From Thermoanaerobaculales bacterium (GTDB taxonomy: Bacteria; Acidobacteriota; Thermoanaerobaculia; Thermoanaerobaculales; Sulfomarinibacteraceae): a stretch of DNA of 64,000 bases. A model generated the notes under the pieces. It was given only the letters and a program-made list of their open reading frames with translations. It was not told where the DNA came from and searched no databases. Positions 4,473 through 56,183 of the stretch are shown piece after piece. The stretch is from positions 2,006 through 66,005 of the forward strand of contig JAOZPW010000001.1 in NCBI GenBank assembly GCA_029932545.1, given 5' to 3'. Both the position numbers and the translations under genes were made by a program. Every line of letters starts with the position of its first letter. The stretch's first letter is position 1.

Positions 4473-5491
4473 TCCATGACGATCATGCCGAGAGCGGTAG
4501 TGATTCTGGCAGGACCTCCCTTCGTGTTGGTGGTTGAAATGTTGGTGATCGATCTTTGGCGGCGGAGAGAGCCGTAAGAGTCATGTACCGACGTCCGATG
4601 GCCCACTCGTCGGATTGCTCGCACAAGAGAGCGCCTACAAGACGAATGATGGATGACCGATTTGGGAAGATGCCGACGACACCGGTACGGCATTTGATTT
4701 CCTTATTGAGGCGTTCCTGGGGGTTGTTGGACCAGATTTTCTTCCAGATTTCGATTGGGAATACGGCGAAGGCCAAGATGTCATGTGCGGCCTCTTCAAG
4801 AAGCGCTGCAGCTACCGGAAAGTTTCCCTCGAGTTGGTCCACAACCACCCAAAGTCGGTTCCAGACAGAATCTGCATCAGGTTGAAGGAAAATCGTACGA
4901 ACCAACGTGGCGACAAACGCCTGGGCATTCTTGGGCACTTTGGCTAACAGATTCCTCATGAAATGAGTCCGGCAGCGCTGCCAAGACGTACCTGGAAAAG
5001 TTGTTTGGCAATCTCGGAAACCTGGGATTTGGAGATTCCGTCGATCCCGAGCTGTTGGACCAGGCGTTCCACTTTTCGGGTCGAAACGCCCAAGACATAA
5101 CTCTCAGCGATGACGTTGAGAAGGGCCTTTTCAGACCTCCGCCGGGCTTCCAAGAGATTGTTGGGAAAGTAGGACCCCCTTCGCAGTTTTGGAATCTTCA
5201 GGTCAATCGTCCCGACCCGGGTATCCCAACGACGGCTCCGAAATCCATTCCGGTGATTCGTCCGATCAGGGCTACGTTCCCCATAGCCGGCACCACAAAT
5301 CGAGTCTACCTCTGCACCCATGAGTTCATCAGCCATCACCCGCACCATCTCCCGAAGCGTATCCGGGTCATCCTCCTCGAGCCTCTTGCGGATCTCATTG
5401 AAAAACGCCATATTGTTCTTGGTCATTGCTGTCTCCTTATTGAGGTTTGGTCATCTCATGGAGAATTACGCAATGGCCTTCATTATGCAAG
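4449..5491 (-). mobile_element. IS256-family insertion sequence, internally deleted derivative (~1.04 kb)
   Basis: Imperfect terminal inverted repeats: GTGTACGAAGGGCCTATGCGTAAT..CCATG at ~4450..4478, matched by the reverse complement of CATGGAGAATTACGCAATGGCCTTCATTATGCA at ~5457..5489. They enclose the split transposase ORFs. Boundaries are good to about 10 bp. Confidence 0.65.
4483..5426 (-). pseudogene. IS256/mutator-family transposase, internal deletion plus frameshift
   Basis: N-terminal piece 4956..5426 (...GVSTRKVERLVQQLGIDGISKSQVSEIAKQ). C-terminal piece 4483..4959 extends upstream in its own frame as TFPGTSWQRCRTHFMRNLLAKVP. The junction is at ~5000, and together the pieces give ~314 aa against ~400 aa for intact family members. 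The missing block is where the first two DDE aspartates normally lie. Confidence 0.85.
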
Positions 5492-5623
5492 TTTCGTCGG
5501 CCCGCTTGTAACGCCTGTGAGGTTGTGGAAAGCGGGGCCCCTACCCCCCTTCCCACAGCCCATCACAGGCACGACGACGATGAACAACTCTTCACTCTTA
5601 CACCACGTCGGTGGACTCTACTC

Positions 5624-5685
5624 TTGGGTTTTCGTTCGCACTGGACATGCCAACATCCAGTGACCGTTGCGTTGATTTGTTAGAA
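5624..5685 (-). other. truncated attC (R''/L'' half only) at the distal end of the array
   Basis: 62 bp matching the ORF-proximal half of the long attC family at 8549..8659, with ~5 mismatches by eye, including TTCTAAC (reverse complement of GTTAGAA 5679..5685). The partner arm (GTTGGCATG...CTCAGC...R') is absent. Confidence 0.7.
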
Positions 5686-5719
5686 GGCAGGCGGTATTTC
5701 ATTCGTTAAGACCTGATGC

Positions 5720-6268
5720 TCAGTTGCCGAGATCCAGATTTTCGGAAATGAAGTCCTCAAGAAACTGAAGGTCCCGTCGTTCAACAGTGATCTGATTTCC
5801 AAAATCGATCGCCCTGCGTTCCGTCTGAGCGAGGCGAGCTTCTATTTCCTTGGTTGACCTCCGGATCTTTTCGAGCATTTCAGACATTTCTTCTGATTCA
5901 GGTCCAGAAAGTTCACGGGCATTTTCTTCCATTCGCTCGATCATCTCTTCGGACCTCACGACAGATTCAGCGAGTGTCTCTCGGTATCCATTGGCCTGCA
6001 TCAAGAGTGTTTCCAGGCTCTCAACTTTGCGCGCCCGAAACTGGAGATAAGCGATTGCAAGTTCGAGTTTCTTGAGTTCGATCTCCCGGCCTTTTTGTTC
6101 AACGCCGTCACTCAAGACTCTCAACAACTCCCGATTCACCTCCACAAGGGACGCCAGTTCCCCGCATTTGACGGTGCCGGGTTCCGAAACCCCCTGGGCA
6201 GATCCTGGTCCCCCAATCAAAAGGTACACGGCCACAAGACCTACGACGAGGAAGTTTCGAAATCTCAT
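5720..6268 (-). CDS. cassette 6: secreted coiled-coil protein of unknown function
   Basis: 182-aa ORF with an AGGGGGG RBS, signal-peptide-like N-terminus (MRFRNFLVVGLVAVYLLIGGPGSAQG), then Glu/Arg/Leu-rich heptad-like sequence. Confidence 0.7.
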   Translation of the reverse strand: MRFRNFLVVGLVAVYLLIGGPGSAQGVSEPGTVKCGELASLVEVNRELLRVLSDGVEQKGREIELKKLELAIAYLQFRARKVESLETLLMQANGYRETLAESVVRSEEMIERMEENARELSGPESEEMSEMLEKIRRSTKEIEARLAQTERRAIDFGNQITVERRDLQFLEDFISENLDLGN

Positions 6269-6305: not shown

Positions 6306-6372
6306 TTATAACTTGAAGCTCAATGGACCAGACCGCGCAGCGGTATGGGTCCATTGGAGCGATCCGTTAGGC
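6306..6372 (-). other. attC site (67 bp) of cassette 5
   Basis: Plus strand reads TTATAAC-TTGAAG-CTCAATGGACC...GGTCCATTGGAG-CGATCC-GTTAGGC. The L arms pair, with one extra base on the ORF-proximal arm. Confidence 0.8.
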
Positions 6373-6451
6373 GACGTAATTTATTCATGATTAATAGGTT
6401 ACGAGGGATTGTATGATTGTTGTCCCTGGCATCAGATTTCCGTAGAGGCGG

Positions 6452-7609
6452 CTACCAAATCCCAGCGGCATGTTGAGTTCGAAGGATCTCGACCATTTCC
6501 TCCTTGAGATCGCCAGGGGCACTCTCTATTGCTTCATTGAGAGGTTGGTTCTTTGTGCCGTTTAGATCCACAAGTCGCGTTTGGACGTGTTCCTTAACTC
6601 GAAAGTGCTGCCTTATGTTGCTGGAAAGAGACCATTTTGCTGAACCTCCCGTAAGGAAGAGGTTGAGGTCCTTTCTCTCGTCACAGAACGCGAGGTTACT
6701 GATCAATAGGTCAAGATATGCAATGTCGCCGCTTGCGAAGTAGGCACCCCAAAACATGTCGTTTTGGGACGGGGATACCGGTAGGGCTGTCTTGATGGCC
6801 GAAGTGTCGGCTGAGAGTTTCAATGCATTTGTGAGAACACCTCGAGGGCCATCCGGTTGTTTGGAAATGGTCTCCTTCCACGCGCCTATTCTTGTTGGAT
6901 TTGAAGAAAACACCTCTGTAAGGAAGCCAACGGCTGGTGGGAAGGTTTCGCTATTTTCCAGAATATCGCTTTCACTGAGAGCGTAAATCGCTTCGTCAAT
7001 GAACTCGGGCCTCGGATCAAGGTAATAGGAGTCCATCAATTCGCCCAAATCGAAGGACTCGAGCCTGTGCTTTGCTTCGAAGGATCTCTTGAGTTCCAGA
7101 CATACATCTGCCACGCGATCACAGACGTTCGCGGTGAAAGTGTACTCACCAAGAAGATCCTGAGGTTCGATGATTAATCCTAGATAGGCGCGACCAAGTT
7201 GCATTCGTTGCTCGGGAGGCGGCGCGACTCCTGAACACAAATCGTTGTCTGGCTCTGACGCGTACTCACTACCATCTGGGCCGATCACCGCCAAGTCAGC
7301 GATGATATCGCAGTGCCCTTTATTATTGGCTTGCCCCCCAGAGAAGAACACAAATGCAACGATCATGTCACCGCGTTTCACATCACTCGTCGTCGAAAGG
7401 CTCGGGGTATATCCGGGAGATGCCGGTTGGTCCCATTGCTCCAGGAACGATTCAGGTTCAGACGATAGGAGCATCATGGAACCGAATGAGCCTACGGACT
7501 TTCTCCACTCTGAGTCGGGGACTACACCGTCCTCGCTGTACCATTGCGCTTGTACCTGGCTAGGAATCAGAATAGCGATGGCGATGAGTGGCAATAGGAA
7601 AATCTTCAC
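6452..7609 (-). CDS. cassette 5: secreted protein of unknown function
   Basis: 385-aa ORF with a GTG start behind AAGGAGG and signal peptide MKIFLLPLIAIAILIPSQVQA. No family recognised. Confidence 0.7.
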   Translation of the reverse strand: MKIFLLPLIAIAILIPSQVQAQWYSEDGVVPDSEWRKSVGSFGSMMLLSSEPESFLEQWDQPASPGYTPSLSTTSDVKRGDMIVAFVFFSGGQANNKGHCDIIADLAVIGPDGSEYASEPDNDLCSGVAPPPEQRMQLGRAYLGLIIEPQDLLGEYTFTANVCDRVADVCLELKRSFEAKHRLESFDLGELMDSYYLDPRPEFIDEAIYALSESDILENSETFPPAVGFLTEVFSSNPTRIGAWKETISKQPDGPRGVLTNALKLSADTSAIKTALPVSPSQNDMFWGAYFASGDIAYLDLLISNLAFCDERKDLNLFLTGGSAKWSLSSNIRQHFRVKEHVQTRLVDLNGTKNQPLNEAIESAPGDLKEEMVEILRTQHAAGIW

Positions 7610-7654
7610 GATACCTCCTTCGAAATGGGTAGCGGTTCGGTCATGCGAAACGAG

Positions 7655-7729
7655 GCCTAACGGTCCGAGTTCAGCGGACCGGGGCCGCGGCCGCCGCGGA
7701 CCGGGGTCCGCTGGAACGAGATGTTAGGC
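7655..7729 (-). other. attC site (75 bp) of cassette 4
   Basis: GCCTAAC (7655..7661) and GTTAGGC (7723..7729) are perfect complements. Inner arms TTCAGCGGACC / GGTCCGCTGGAA pair with one extra G. The cassette stop codon TAA lies inside R''. Confidence 0.85.
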
Positions 7730-8145: not shown

Positions 8146-8235
8146 GCCTAACGACCGAACTCAGTTGACCGGCAGCACGGCGCAGAGCGAAGCGGCGCGA
8201 CGGGTTGCTGGGTCAACTGCAGTGATTTGTTATGT
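8146..8235 (-). other. attC site (90 bp) of cassette 3
   Basis: GCCTAAC (8146..8152) ... CTCAGTTGACC ... GGTCAACTGCAG-TGATTT-GTTATGT (8229..8235). There is an extra base in the ORF-proximal L arm, and the stop codon lies inside R''. Confidence 0.85.
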
Positions 8236-8526
8236 GTTTGCATTGAACTTAGGCCAGCGGTTGTAGCCTTTTTGTGGGTTATTTGACTCATTTTTGCGAA
8301 TATACTCAACCTCTTTAGCTGACAGCTCTTCTTCTGTTGCTGTCTCTGACTCCCAAAGAATTTGTTTTCTTATCGTATAATCTTTGCGGACATCATCTGG
8401 AAGGCTTTTGAAATCTTCATTGACTATGGCCATGTCCGGGCTGCCATAATATCTATAACTACCTACACTATCTTTACCAATGTATATCTTGCCTGTTGGG
8501 CACGTAATCATATAGATTTGTTTCAT
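8230..8526 (-). CDS. cassette 3: stand-alone GIY-YIG nuclease-domain protein
   Basis: 98-aa ORF: IYMITCPTGKIYIGKDS...YYGS (GIY...YIG block), then SAKEVEYIRKNESNNPQKGYN (E...N block). The cassette is visibly AT-rich relative to its flanks. Confidence 0.65.
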   Translation of the reverse strand: MKQIYMITCPTGKIYIGKDSVGSYRYYGSPDMAIVNEDFKSLPDDVRKDYTIRKQILWESETATEEELSAKEVEYIRKNESNNPQKGYNRWPKFNANT

Positions 8527-8548: not shown

Positions 8549-8659
8549 ACATAACGCTTGAACTCAGCGGCGCTGGTTGTTGGCATGGCCGGTGCCTTTG
8601 GGTTTTCGTTCGCACTGGACATGCCAACAATCAGTGACCGTTGCCGTGATTTGTTAGAC
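8549..8659 (-). other. attC site (111 bp, long family) of cassette 2
   Basis: ACATAAC (8549..8555) ... CTCAGCGGCGCTGGTTGTTGGCATG ... CATGCCAACAATCAGTGACCGTTGCCGTG-ATTT-GTTAGAC (8653..8659). Roughly 85-90% identical by eye to the site at 9358..9469. Confidence 0.85.
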
Positions 8660-8728
8660 CGCGAAGTGTTACCTATGTCCATGGACTGTTTTGTTGCCTC
8701 TGGCCCAGCCGGCCCCCACATCTGCAAA

Positions 8729-9076
8729 TTACCGAGTCTGATCAGGTTTCATCCCCAGTTGAACTCTGACAACTCGTTCAACGGATATCATGTCTGGCTG
8801 CGAAAGTTCACCGAGCCGCGTACCCAAACGCCCTTTGGTTACGGTTGCAATCTGATCGGCCATTGCCTTCCGCTGTTCGCCGTTGAGGTCCACGTAGGTT
8901 TCGCTGGGATACAACTTGGACACGTTACTTGTGAGCGGAACAACCTGGACTCGATTCAAATGCTGGTTGGCTGCATCATTACTGATGATGACGGCAGGCC
9001 TTCGCTTCCGAACTTCACCACCAAGTGATGGATCAAAATTGACCCACCACACCTCACCGCGTTTCATCAGCGACAT
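8729..9076 (-). CDS. mazF: cassette 2: MazF/PemK-family type II toxin (endoribonuclease)
   Basis: 115-aa ORF with the MazF/PemK N-terminal signature ([29 protein letters not shown]...VVPLTS). It overlaps the upstream antitoxin ORF by 23 bp. Confidence 0.85.
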
Positions 9077-9284
9077 CCATCATCGTGGTTTCTGCCCACT
9101 CCATTGCCTCTGTTTCGCGCTCTTCTTCCTGAGCCATTTCACGGTAGGCGGCAGACAACTCTTCCTCCACGACGTGGGGACGAACAAGTGATTCGATAAA
9201 ACGGCTAATTCGTCTTCGACCGACTATTCGGTGAAGACCGTGATAGACATGCTCGTCAACAGTGATGGTTAGCTTTTTTTGCAT
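9054..9284 (-). CDS. cassette 2: ribbon-helix-helix type antitoxin
   Basis: 76-aa ORF with N-terminal beta-strand/helix pattern [18 protein letters not shown] and an acidic C-terminal tail. It overlaps the mazF-like gene and has an AGGAGA RBS. Confidence 0.7.
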
Positions 9285-9296
9285 GGCCGTTCTCCT

Positions 9297-9333
9297 ATAC
9301 GTGTAATATACGTGTAATAGAGAATATTGGCAA
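9297..9333 (-). promoter_or_regulatory. cassette-internal sigma70-type promoter with tandem 11-bp operator-like repeats
   Basis: Minus strand reads TTGCCA (9333..9328), 17 nt, TATATT (9310..9305), then AGGAGA and ATG 9284. The tandem direct repeat ATACGTGTAAT x2 (9297..9307, 9308..9318) overlaps the -10 and the transcription start. Confidence 0.6.
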
Positions 9334-9357
9334 GGGGTTCACACCATCGATTCGACG

Positions 9358-9469
9358 GTCTAACGTTTGAGCTCAGCGGCGCTGGTTGTTGGCATGGCCG
9401 GTGCTTTTGGGTTTTCGTTTCGCACTAGACATGCCAACAGCCAGTGACCGCTGCAGTGATTTGTTAGGT
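9358..9469 (-). other. attC site (112 bp, long family) of cassette 1
   Basis: GTCTAAC (9358..9364) ... GCTCAGCGGCGCTGGTTGTTGGCATG ... CATGCCAACAGCCAGTGACCGCTGCAGTG-ATTT-GTTAGGT (9463..9469). The stop codon of ORF 9464..9901 lies inside R''. Confidence 0.85.
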
Positions 9470-9901: not shown

Positions 9902-9995
9902 TAAACCGTCCAATCCTGAGCCTGAGGCCTAAGCTCTGCGGGCTTCCCCCGCATGGGTGAGGCCCACTGCAATGAAGTGTCACGCAGTGTCGCCA

Positions 9996-10403: not shown

Positions 10404-10485
10404 ACCTTCGAATAGGAACCTAACTATGTAATTAGGTTGCAGAAACGCAACCTATTTCTCGGCGGATTGTTATGTTGCAGGGTGG
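10404..10485 (-). other. attI recombination region; predicted crossover box GTTAGGT
   Basis: ACCTAAC at 10418..10424 (minus strand GTTAGGT) lies inside the palindrome AACCTAA-CTATGTAA-TTAGGTT (10417..10438). A second inverted repeat AGGTTGC-AGAAAC-GCAACCT follows at 10434..10452. This is the space between the first cassette and intI. Confidence 0.6.
10423..10450 (-). promoter_or_regulatory. candidate cassette promoter (Pc) inside attI
   Basis: Minus strand reads TTGCGT (10450..10445), 16 nt, CATAGT (10428..10423), firing into cassette 1. Sequence match only. Confidence 0.3.
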
Positions 10486-10514
10486 TTGCTTTGTCCATGT
10501 CCCAAGATTACAAT
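10486..10514 (+). promoter_or_regulatory. candidate intI promoter
   Basis: TTGCTT (10486..10491), 17 nt, TACAAT (10509..10514), about 40 bp upstream of ATG 10554. Confidence 0.5.
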
Positions 10515-10553
10515 AGGTTGAGAGTCCCGTCCACGCTGCGGATAGGAAATTCG

Positions 10554-11573
10554 ATGAAAACAAATATTGCATCCGCAGCAACCAGGAAACCCAATCTTCT
10601 CGACCGAGTTCATGAAGTGGCGAGGGTTCGCCACCTTGCGTATCGGACAGAGCAGAGTTACGTCAACTGGATCAAGAGATTCGTTCTCTTTCACGATATG
10701 CGCCACCCTGCCCAAATGGGAAAAATCGAGGTGGAGGGTTTTCTCACCCACCTGGCTGTCCGCGATCGTGTGTCGGCCTCCACTCAGAATCAGGCACTTT
10801 CTGCCATCTTGTTCTTGTACAAACACGTTCTCAACCAGAAGCTGCCCTGGCTCGATGATGTCATCCGAGCCAAAAGACCCAAGCGTATTCCCATTGTCCT
10901 CTCGCGATCCGAAATAACCCGCCTGTTCGTCCACCTCGACGGAACTCCCCGCTTGGTTGCCGGCCTCTTGTACGGTTCTGGCCTTCGCTTGATGGAGGCT
11001 CTGCGTTTGAGAGTTCATGATCTCGATTTTGACTACGGTCAGATTCTCATTCGAGACGGGAAGGGCGGCAAGGATCGCCACACCGTTCTTCCTTCTGGGT
11101 TGATTCCCGACATCAAGCAACATTTGGTATTGGTCGAATCGATCCACCACAGCGACCTGGAACGAGGAGAAGGCCAGGTGAAGCTCCCCTCTGCGCTGGC
11201 AAGAAAGTACCCCACCCGCGCCACCGCGTGGGGTTGGCAATGGGTTTTCCCTTCTCCGACATTTTCATCCGACCCTCGTGACGGCATGGTTCGGCGCCAC
11301 CACCTCTACCACCAACGAATCCAACGCGCGGTTTCACACGCTGTCCGAGCAGCCATGCTCAACAAGACGGCAACCTGCCATACGCTCCGGCACTCGTTTG
11401 CGACCCATTTGCTCGAGGACGGTTACGACATCAGAACGGTGCAGGAACTCCTGGGCCACAAAGATGTCAAGACGACGATGATCTATACGCATGTGATGAA
11501 TAATGGCCGCTGCGGTGTGATCAGCCCGTTGGACAGGGGCCGAATCAAGGGGGGCCGAAGGGGTGATCCATAG
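10554..11573 (+). CDS. intI: integron integrase IntI (tyrosine recombinase)
   Basis: Recombinase boxes GLRLMEALRLRVHDLD, HTLRHSFATHLLEDG and LLGHKDVKTTMIYTHV, plus the IntI-specific insertion LPSALARKYPTRATAWGWQWVFPS. ORF 10437..11573 was trimmed to ATG 10554. Confidence 0.93.
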   Translation: MKTNIASAATRKPNLLDRVHEVARVRHLAYRTEQSYVNWIKRFVLFHDMRHPAQMGKIEVEGFLTHLAVRDRVSASTQNQALSAILFLYKHVLNQKLPWLDDVIRAKRPKRIPIVLSRSEITRLFVHLDGTPRLVAGLLYGSGLRLMEALRLRVHDLDFDYGQILIRDGKGGKDRHTVLPSGLIPDIKQHLVLVESIHHSDLERGEGQVKLPSALARKYPTRATAWGWQWVFPSPTFSSDPRDGMVRRHHLYHQRIQRAVSHAVRAAMLNKTATCHTLRHSFATHLLEDGYDIRTVQELLGHKDVKTTMIYTHVMNNGRCGVISPLDRGRIKGGRRGDP

Positions 11574-54776: not shown

Positions 54777-56183
54777 CTACTGATACTCTGCCCCCAAAAT
54801 GACACTGACGATGATCGCCCCAACGGCCAAGGGGGCCACAAAACGAAGGAGAAAGTGCCAGACGCCGAAGGTCTTCATCCGTCCATGGCCCTTTTCAAGC
54901 TCCTGTAGGTTTTCGTCTTTAGTCAGAACCCAACCAACGAAAAGTGCAATCAAAAACCCGCCAACCGGCAAAAACCAGTTGCTTGCGAGGTAGTCGAGGG
55001 TCCCAAAGACGCCGGCCGTGGAAGGTCGACCGATGAGATTGATCTCAGAAAGCCCTTGAACGCCTCCCAGACTGAGAGCATTGAGGATGCCGAAGAGTGC
55101 GATGGATCCGCCCATAATCAAGGTGGCTCTGCGCCGGGCCCAACCAAACTCATCGATTGCATAACTCGCGACGACTTCAAGCAGACTGATGGTACTGGTC
55201 AAAGCGGCGAAGGCCACCAGGACGTAAAAAAGGGCGCTGATCACCGCCCCCCCGGGGAGTTTAAAAAAGACCACCGGCAGGGTCGTAAATAGAATCGTTG
55301 AGGATTTGGTAATTTCAAAATCGAAACTGAAAATAATGGAGAACATGATGATGCAGGCCATCACCGCGATGACGGTATCGAGGACACAGACCGTAATAGC
55401 TGCACGTGGAATCGATGTTTTCTTCCTCATATAGCTGCCATAGGTCAGCATCGCGCCCATGCCAAGACTGAGGGTGAAAAAGCTATGCCCCAGCGCCTCC
55501 AAAACCCCCCCGGGGGTCAACTCTGAGAAATTCGGCCGGAAGATGAAGGTCAGCGCCTGATTGAAGCCCGGGGTCCATACAACATAGAAAACCAAGGCCA
55601 GGAGGATCGTAAACAAGATCGGCATCAGGACCTTGGCGGCGCGCTCAATTCCTTTGCCGACGCCGAAGTAGACAACACCGACCGTCGCACCCATAAATAA
55701 CAGGTGGAACAAGGTCTGTTGCCATGGGTTTGAGAGGAAGATGCTGAAAAAGGTCTCGAGGGCGGCAGGATCATGGGCCAGAGGGGCCAGTTTTCCCGAG
55801 AGCGACAGTACGATATAGCGCAGGGTCCAACCTGCAACCACACTGTAGTAGGAAAGAATGACAAAACCGGTTACAACGCCGAGAATGCCGACTCCAGTCC
55901 AGGCAACGCCTCCGGGTCGGTCGCGCCCCAGTAGGCGAAAGGCCCCAACGGGACCCCGTTGGGTCTTTCGGCCCAGGAGCACCTCGGCGATCATGATGGG
56001 CGCTCCGACCAATACGATGGCTCCCAGATAGACCAGAACGAAGGCGCCCCCACCATTTTCGAAGGTGATATAGGGAAACTTCCACAGGTTGCCGAGTCCG
56101 ACGGCACTCCCTGCGGCGGCCAGGACAAATCCCAGGCGGCTACCCCATTGAGCACGCGCATTATGTTGCCGGTGATTTTCCAT
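54777..56183 (-). CDS. sodium-dependent transporter, neurotransmitter:sodium symporter (SNF) family
   Basis: 468-aa ORF: WGSRLGFVLAAAGSAVGLGNLWKFPY, ~11-12 TM segments. Confidence 0.9.
   Translation of the reverse strand: MENHRQHNARAQWGSRLGFVLAAAGSAVGLGNLWKFPYITFENGGGAFVLVYLGAIVLVGAPIMIAEVLLGRKTQRGPVGAFRLLGRDRPGGVAWTGVGILGVVTGFVILSYYSVVAGWTLRYIVLSLSGKLAPLAHDPAALETFFSIFLSNPWQQTLFHLLFMGATVGVVYFGVGKGIERAAKVLMPILFTILLALVFYVVWTPGFNQALTFIFRPNFSELTPGGVLEALGHSFFTLSLGMGAMLTYGSYMRKKTSIPRAAITVCVLDTVIAVMACIIMFSIIFSFDFEITKSSTILFTTLPVVFFKLPGGAVISALFYVLVAFAALTSTISLLEVVASYAIDEFGWARRRATLIMGGSIALFGILNALSLGGVQGLSEINLIGRPSTAGVFGTLDYLASNWFLPVGGFLIALFVGWVLTKDENLQELEKGHGRMKTFGVWHFLLRFVAPLAVGAIIVSVILGAEYQ

Follow-up and report, generated by a model that had tools for sequence, protein, structure and literature searches.

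An integron gene cassette for a predicted exported two-domain protein from a large, unnamed bacterial family

We analyzed a stretch of 64,000 nucleotides (the window) from contig JAOZPW010000001.1 of a Thermoanaerobaculales bacterium (Acidobacteriota; assembly GCA_029932545.1), in which the region from 6312 to 7660 is a genuine integron gene cassette that sits behind an intI gene and an attI site. Its product, a protein of 385 residues, belongs to a large and widespread bacterial family that has neither a name nor a curated database entry. We see about an even chance that this protein is a Sec-exported, noncatalytic, two-domain binding protein of the periplasm or the cell surface that travels on an ordinary integron cassette. 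The cassette itself is normal. What is less ordinary is that a large, unnamed, and structurally unmatched family has been repeatedly captured by integrons.

For most integron cassettes, the function of the encoded protein is unknown, and the adaptive value of the environmental cassette pool is largely unexplained. The cassette studied here offers a tractable case, representing a large and confidently modeled family with no curated name and no solved structural relative. The family ranges across phyla from Acidobacteriota to Planctomycetota and Bacteroidota, and unrelated integrons have captured its members repeatedly, once in the best-expressed first position of an array (locus L037, described below). 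Once defined, the function of this family would annotate thousands of genes at once.

Cassette boundaries and the encoded gene

The limits of the cassette were read from the attC sites on either side of it, using the core criteria R'' = RYYYAAC and R' = GTTRRRY. The attC of the preceding cassette, which encodes a SnoaL protein, forms the 5' boundary (7655-7729, minus strand; GCCTAAC...GTTAGGC, with R' at 7655-7661), and its minus-strand R' core GTTAGGC makes T7660 the first cassette base. The cassette's own attC (67 nt; 6306-6372, minus strand) extends from the R'' core GCCTAAC to the R' core GTTATAA (6306-6312), which is slightly degenerate compared with GTTRRRY and places the last cassette base at G6312. 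Taking the G|TT crossover points of these two R' cores, the minus-strand cassette is complete, is the sixth in its array, and measures 1349 bp, precisely the limits and the size that an earlier note made from the sequence alone had given. The bottom strands of both sites fold as DNA into stable hairpins (-17.2 kcal/mol and z = -4.13 for 6306-6372; z = -4.46 for 7655-7729), and none of 200 shuffled sequences was equally stable in either case.

The integron integrase gene intI (10437-11573, plus strand) is divergent from the array and matches TIGR02249 with 467 bits (cutoff of 265), as well as Pfam PF00589 and PF13495. The listed open reading frame (ORF) begins at TTG, and homology starts at about residue 40-54. 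The attI region (10418-10500, minus strand) includes a GTTAGGT crossover site at about 10418-10424. As far as GTTAG, it shares approximately 86% identity with its counterpart in the sister integron L037; beyond that point, the sequences diverge. A consensus scan revealed no sigma70-like promoter within the studied cassette.

The only ORF of the cassette (6452-7609, minus strand, TAA stop included) encodes the 385-residue protein. It begins with GTG rather than with the ATG assumed earlier, and the Shine-Dalgarno sequence AAGGAGG that the earlier note had pointed out is indeed present 4 nt before this start (7614-7620, minus strand). Residues 1-21 (MKIFLLPLIAIAILIPSQVQA, encoded at 7547-7609 on the minus strand) were judged by eye to form a signal peptide, as had also been proposed. 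Its n, h, and c regions read MK / IFLLPLIAIAILIP / SQVQA|Q, with VQA at positions -3 to -1 of the predicted cleavage site. From these features, the protein would be exported by the Sec pathway. The identical protein (P0001) is encoded on contigs from three other public samples, and the four gene copies are also identical at the DNA level, making a polymorphism test for selection uninformative.

Predicted structure and family conservation

In an AlphaFold2 model of the full protein built from 19 homologues (predicted local distance difference test score, pLDDT, of 89; predicted template-modeling score, pTM, of 0.84), the mature protein is a beta-sandwich packed on an alpha-solenoid. The two dissimilar halves noticed earlier correspond to beta strands between residues 36 and 180 and to 12 helices between residues 188 and 381. 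The model and the limits of hidden Markov model (HMM) domains delineate an N-terminal immunoglobulin (Ig)-like beta-sandwich domain at residues 28-182 (7064-7528, minus strand), and AlphaFold models together with alignments delineate a C-terminal 12-helix alpha-solenoid domain at residues 183-385 (6455-7063, minus strand). Residues 1-27, which include the signal peptide, are disordered in the model (pLDDT below 50). The helical domain modeled alone attains a pLDDT of 95 and a pTM of 0.90, and the high pTM of the two-domain model suggests that the arrangement of the domains is fixed. Four cysteines lie in the N domain at positions 100, 125, 163, and 170, as the earlier note had roughly placed them, and an additional one is Cys309. 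The C domain carries the motifs YYLDPRP, NDMxWGAYFASGD, ERKDLNLFLTGGSAKWSLSSN, and a C-terminal GIW.

Comparison of the predicted structure with the PDB using Foldseek, a check suggested in the earlier note, yielded only generic beta-sandwich matches for the N domain (E values from 2e-5 to 1e-3, probability 1.0). These include the carbohydrate-binding domain (CBD) of Wzt, RhoGDI, NPC2, the macroglobulin (MG) domain of alpha2-macroglobulin, RbmA, the N-terminal domain of GH123, and TRAP subunits. No PDB fold matched the helical domain at E ≤ 1e-3, and its best matches are weak ones to ARM/HEAT solenoids (E values of 0.27-2; template-modeling [TM] scores of 0.2-0.34). At the sequence level, nothing significant was found in the PDB with the single sequence or with two profiles, and the studied protein has no match at E ≤ 10 in Pfam and NCBIfam and none in PADLOC. 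The earlier verdict that the protein has no recognizable family therefore stands for Pfam, NCBIfam, PADLOC, and PDB sequences. However, the protein belongs to an unnamed family of approximately 4,000 clusters, and so this verdict describes the databases and not the protein.

The neighbors of the N domain could be taken to indicate an extracellular or surface matrix or adhesion protein, with the sandwich for binding to polysaccharide or a polymer of the surface and the solenoid for oligomerization, such that the cassette would alter the biofilm or the cell surface. Among these neighbors are the Wzt CBD (8dky/6o14; TM-scores to the target of 0.48-0.55) and the biofilm scaffold RbmA (4kkr/4kkq; root mean square deviation of 3.4-4.1), and RbmA was also the top sequence-profile match, albeit a weak and nonsignificant one (E value of about 1). 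One homologue adjoins a GH16/CBM6 glycanase, and cassette proteins with signal peptides have been proposed to participate in cell-cell and cell-environment interactions (PMC10963911). However, fold matches of this kind are to be expected of any Ig-like domain, the sandwich is missing from most family members, and beyond Sec there is no evident secretion-system signal or cell-surface anchor. The neighborhoods of relatives also show no consistent link to polysaccharide loci, and overall we regard a matrix or adhesion role as quite improbable.

The family to which the protein belongs was delineated by sequence searches. A word-indexed search returned only 19 relatives. When 1.84 billion cluster representatives (clusters at 50% identity) were searched with a profile, 4,006 matched at E ≤ 1e-3, 2,510 of them also at E ≤ 1e-10, and 474 still at E ≤ 1e-30, and the database name of every source record is "hypothetical protein." To describe domain architectures, the family profile was split into its N and C domains and applied to the top 164 members. 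The helical domain stands alone behind a signal peptide in 69 of these, follows the sandwich (N-C) in 43, follows another N-terminal region (X-C) in 32, and precedes the sandwich (C-N) in 11, whereas the sandwich occurs alone in 2. Thus, the two domains co-occur in both orders. The sole recognizable fusion partners are TPR, Sel1, and PDZ, all of which are protein-interaction modules. Pfam gave no match over either domain in any of 136 family members, and no TPR, Sel1, or HEAT profile matched the C domain of these 136; TPR matches were confined to fused N-terminal regions.

A signal-peptide-like N terminus was recognized in 138 of 165 members by a crude hydrophobicity rule, and a lipobox in 6. 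Matches in genomes come from Acidobacteriota, Thermoanaerobaculia, Chitinophagales, Ignavibacteriae, Campylobacterota, Nitrospinaceae, Thiomicrorhabdus, Lutibacter, Flammeovirga, Oleiharenicola, Treponema, and Planctomycetota, all of which are generally regarded as diderm lineages. Culturable carriers include Lutibacter maritimus DSM 24450, Thiomicrorhabdus heinhorstiae HH1, Flammeovirga, and Pedobacter aquatilis. IMG/VR contains no relative of the family, and a phage origin was rejected on this basis. The family is also nearly absent from PLSDB plasmids. Separately, a standalone beta-sandwich is encoded on Cupriavidus megaplasmids (NZ_CP068436.1 and NZ_AP025172.1), where its gene adjoins those for a LysR regulator and a DDE transposase. 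On p1 of Cupriavidus necator (NZ_CP068436.1), this sandwich is located at 6878-7489 and is 33% identical to residues 18-182 of the studied protein; the PLSDB gene table for the record holds one annotated feature overall and none at 6878-7489.

Across phyla, family members retain 30-40% identity and invariant motifs. The helical domain carries the motifs YYLxPxP, SPxxNDMxWGAFFASGD, and ERxDxxLFLTGxSAKWSLSSNAxxH, and it ends in GxW. Invariance is limited to D284, W287, and G294; N283, A324, W326, S327, L328, G383, and W385 are at least 90% conserved, and several members have substitutions at H335, E311, and R312. The sandwich has two Cys pairs, the first present in about 60% of members and the second in about 30%. 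The studied protein retains the second pair (C163/C170); in the other pair, the first Cys is replaced by Gly, and C125 has been gained. This degree of conservation of the Cys pairs fits an oxidizing compartment, and the sandwich probably contains disulfides, with C163-C170 and C100-C125 as the candidate pairs.

Judged from the alignment, the conservation pattern of the helical domain does not look like that of a catalytic center. An enzymatic explanation would make the protein a periplasmic glycan lyase or hydrolase with a new all-alpha fold, with Asp284 as the catalytic residue and Trp residues stacking on sugar. The invariant D284 is located between N283 and W287, and W326-S327 are conserved, which would favor such an enzyme. 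The top TM-score for the C domain also belongs to a PL5-type polysaccharide lyase (7fhw; TM-score to the query of 0.34), but with an E value of 1.8 this is not a significant fold match. Moreover, the domain consists of only about 200 residues of short helices and has no second conserved acid/base residue, and its fusion partners are interaction modules rather than catalytic or carbohydrate-binding ones. A motif of the NNHSYW type is a lyase motif, and its His and Tyr are absent here; a PL5-lyase-like motif was rejected for this reason. A Ser-His-Asp arrangement and a metal site were likewise rejected, given that H335, E311, and R312 vary. An enzyme of this kind is therefore, in our opinion, very unlikely.

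Genomic contexts and proposed function

The genes next to family members offer no consistent functional clue. An all-against-all BLAST of neighbors at 27 loci detected no gene family in common except among close relatives, and Pfam searches of about 40 neighbors, along with precomputed contexts, returned unrelated functions. Two candidate links were examined and rejected. Two N-C homologues with 36% identity are located on Acidobacteriota contigs from metagenome-assembled genomes (L004/L008 and L006), 35-81 bp downstream of a TetR-OEP-MFP-RND operon and on the same strand. An RND efflux operon upstream of the family gene is confined to these two closely related loci, and RND efflux was dismissed as a general link. 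Crp/cNMP-binding regulators near four Bacteroidota/Ignavibacteria loci were judged to be common background in those phyla.

In contrast with these variable neighbors, capture by integrons recurs. Homologues were accepted as cassettes only after their flanks had been read, since the automatic attC detector has a background rate of 9.5%. By this standard, about 6 of approximately 65 distinct loci are cassettes, a fraction that is indicative only, and they represent at least five attC lineages. One cassette encodes an N-C protein of 54% identity (L037; ENA ERZ23498485, 1-1674). The sequence upstream is attI-like, and downstream lies an attC of the same (long) family as the attC sites of window cassettes 2, 3, and 7, which makes this gene the first cassette of a sister integron. 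In a high-GC integron (L039), an IntI-like gene (E value of 3e-26) is accompanied by a toxin-antitoxin cassette and by four more cassettes that have an attC type of their own; the fifth cassette encodes a standalone helical-domain protein. In an AT-rich array (L047), GCCATAAC...GTTATGG attC sites flank the family gene on both sides. The same layout is found at L065, where the family gene has in-frame stops, with TAG TAA directly after YYMEPRPD (1860-2560); this probably reflects either decay of the cassette copy or an error in sequencing. Another locus (L049) is a probable cassette that is cut by the contig end, and at L005 the gene lies approximately 3 kb past the last recognizable attC of yet another array.

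Repeated capture of family members by unrelated integrons is thus shown, and it speaks for a self-contained function at the cell envelope that selection can act on. The distribution survey that the earlier note had recommended gives a family of about 4,000 clusters, with members captured as cassettes in five or more integron lineages. Horizontal acquisition, which that note had proposed, gains support from the diverged homologues in the cassettes of other integrons and from the G+C content of the array (52%, versus 56% for the window).

One further array was left unclassified. In Lutibacter maritimus DSM 24450 (NZ_FOZP01000001.1, 6190-11510), seven small genes on the same strand, including those for DUF2167, DUF3788, DUF2200, DUF4919, and a family member, each follow a conserved repeat of approximately 135 nt. 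RNAalifold found no hairpin in this repeat, and no recombinase gene is adjacent, the upstream gene being GmrSD_N. An interpretation as an attC array or an rAID-like array is unsupported, and the genes encode DUFs rather than known immunity families.

A hint at function comes from distant members in cyanobacteria. A plasmid of Acaryochloris marina S15 (NZ_CP064927.1, 3648-5639) encodes a member without a signal peptide, WP_212667247.1, that matches the C-domain HMM with 113 bits. Its gene begins 55 bp downstream of the gene for WP_249370351.1, a 429-residue protein with an N-terminal eCIS_core/DUF4157 domain (E value of 8e-33) and a C-terminal Cys/His region of approximately 115 residues (about 310-429; FHEH...NNCQDY) that weakly matches LRAT (E value of 0.009). 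The pair is also present on JGI metagenome contigs (L082-L084) with 59% identity for the toxin-like protein and 54% for the family member, and the gap between the two genes spans 55-137 bp. DUF4157 marks toxins associated with extracellular contractile injection systems (eCIS) whose toxin domains are C-terminal, some of them with a linked antitoxin (PMC8213781). The eCIS_core/LRAT-like gene and the family member without a signal peptide are therefore a candidate toxin-immunity pair, as judged by domain matches and gene order.

By extension, the helical domain could be an immunity-type inhibitor of a papain-like (LRAT or NlpC-P60) envelope toxin or enzyme. The versions with signal peptides, including the studied protein, would then be orphan periplasmic immunity proteins against effectors injected by competitors, spread by integrons in the manner of rAID-1. 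We consider this explanation unlikely. It is consistent with the bona fide members downstream of the eCIS_core/LRAT-like gene, a pairing conserved in a second lineage, and with the variable gene contexts, the lack of a catalytic signature, the predicted periplasmic location, and the repeated capture in cassettes. A precedent also exists in Bacteroidales, where orphan immunity genes are known to occur in integron-like arrays (bioRxiv 10.1101/471110). However, the toxin adjacency is restricted to one lineage, with two orthologous loci among about 70 contexts, and none of the other family genes at these loci has a toxin-domain homologue beside it. The studied cassette likewise has no toxin gene next to it; the two adjacent cassettes encode a SnoaL protein and a coiled-coil protein. 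In addition, the conservation across phyla is unusually strong for an immunity protein, fusions to TPR or PDZ and to the sandwich in both orders are atypical, and the other cassettes of the window array are not immunity families. The gene downstream of the toxin-like gene might alternatively encode a chaperone or adaptor for the toxin.

Should the cyanobacterial members be a true guide, integrons would be linked to defense against interbacterial toxins, and cassettes for such inhibitor modules would be a non-gut counterpart of the Bacteroidales rAID-1 orphan-immunity arrays. The broadest form of this idea, in which the helical domain of 200 residues defines a new and widespread periplasmic inhibitor or immunity family against papain-like envelope toxins, and environmental integrons trade these modules as interbacterial-defense cassettes, strikes us as doubtful. 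If the protein is merely another periplasmic scaffold, the finding is ordinary.

Of the roles offered in the earlier note (exported effector, binding protein, or surface-modifying factor), the evidence favors a nonenzymatic binding protein. According to this proposal, the promoterless cassette would be transcribed by read-through from the Pc promoter of the integron, and its product would be exported via Sec into the periplasm or the medium, with cleavage after VQA21. The mature protein would form one rigid unit in which an Ig-like sandwich, probably bearing disulfides, rests against the 12-helix solenoid. It would act noncatalytically, binding an envelope partner through a surface formed by N283-D284, W287, and W326-S327, with the beta-sandwich as a second, cooperating binding module. 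We infer binding rather than catalysis, and the identity of the partner is speculative; our best single guess, at low odds, is an envelope-active papain-like (LRAT or NlpC-P60) enzyme or toxin that the protein would neutralize. Several points weigh against the proposal. Family members have no known ligand, partner, or phenotype, and the gene neighborhoods described above provide no consistent clue. The conserved residues could be structural, serving in helix capping or core packing instead of forming a binding site, and an invariant Asp beside aromatic residues could also fit a small glycan-active enzyme. Finally, expression of a sixth cassette is assumed.

The array and its relation to known systems

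Starting from attI, the array comprises seven co-oriented cassettes, sized by reading their R' cores, and extends down to about 5622. Cassette 1 (approximately 491 bp) encodes a TPR protein. Its attC (9930-9990, minus strand) is short and atypical and was missed by the scans, its R' being GCTTAGGC rather than GTTRRRY. Cassette 2 (569 bp) encodes a DUF4288 protein, and cassette 3 (809 bp; 8555-9363, minus strand) a MazE/PemK (MazF-like) toxin-antitoxin pair. The sole sigma70-like promoter found in the array is located in cassette 3 (9333-9305), the usual layout for stabilizing toxin-antitoxin cassettes. Cassette 4 (403 bp) has an ORF for 98 residues (8230-8526, minus strand) whose product starts with MKQIYMITCPTGKIYIGKD and by eye resembles the GIY-YIG nuclease motif; it matches nothing in Pfam or NCBIfam. 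Cassette 5 (491 bp) encodes a SnoaL_2 protein and is followed by the studied cassette. The earlier note had called the latter the largest of the array and well above typical cassette size; at 1349 bp it is the largest of the seven, but it is not anomalous for integron cassettes in general.

Cassette 7 (at least 690 bp, truncated) encodes a protein of 182 residues (5720-6268, minus strand) with a signal peptide (MRFRNFLVVGLVAVYLLIGGPGSAQG) and a Glu/Leu/Arg-rich, coiled-coil-like sequence that has no match in Pfam, NCBIfam, or PADLOC. It is thus a second predicted exported protein without an assigned family, directly adjoining the studied one. Its attC (about 5622-5690, minus strand) is cut by an IS256/Mutator-family transposase gene (4483-5690 region). 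This gene is now represented by two ORFs (4956-5426 and 4483-4959) that cover PF00872 positions 13-144 and 258-377 but not the part in between. The other half of the attC is found nowhere in the window, which indicates that the array end is a rearrangement. Strong palindromic hairpins with AAC...GTT ends were also detected by regular-expression and folding-energy scans for attC sites at 55825-55964 and 2612-2836, distant from the integron; they may be due to chance or be unrelated.

Compared with known systems, the studied cassette resembles those of sedentary chromosomal integrons. It is promoterless, has a single ORF and its own attC, and lies in an array behind intI/attI, where it adjoins such typical cargo as MazE/PemK toxin-antitoxin, SnoaL, TPR, and DUF4288 genes. 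Signal peptides are present in about 11-14% of environmental cassette ORFs, mostly without known function (PMC10963911), and cassettes commonly carry genes for exported proteins whose function is unknown (PMC10963911). However, the studied cassette is larger than its array neighbors, and its cargo, rather than being a singleton, belongs to a family of approximately 4,000 clusters. Cassettes with members of this family are found in five or more integron lineages, whose attC types are unrelated.

The protein shares some traits with immunity proteins of polymorphic, eCIS, and type VI secretion system toxins and with rAID-1 arrays, namely variable context, recombinase-associated arrays, small size, a presumed nonenzymatic mode of binding, and a predicted periplasmic location, which immunity proteins have when the toxin acts on the envelope. 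Its distant homologues without signal peptides are also encoded directly downstream of an eCIS_core/LRAT-like toxin gene. In contrast to immunity proteins, there is no toxin gene beside the studied cassette or about 68 other family loci, and the family has no Pfam immunity match, is far more conserved, and often occurs in fusions with TPR, PDZ, or the beta-sandwich.

With regard to architecture, the C domain resembles periplasmic TPR, Sel1, and ARM/HEAT solenoid adaptors in being an all-alpha stack of paired helices of 12-14 residues. Family members are often fused to bona fide TPR or Sel1 repeats, and the weak Foldseek neighbors are ARM/HEAT proteins. The domain differs from TPR, Sel1, and HEAT solenoids because it matches no repeat profile and has its own motifs, including the conserved C-terminal G-x-W. 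Similarly, the N domain shares its general fold with Ig-like/E-set modules (Wzt CBD, RbmA FnIII, RhoGDI, NPC2/ML, and MG), with TM-scores to the target of up to 0.69, but it is only 8-20% identical to them, shares no nameable ligand motif with them, matches no Pfam entry, and has a Cys pattern of its own.

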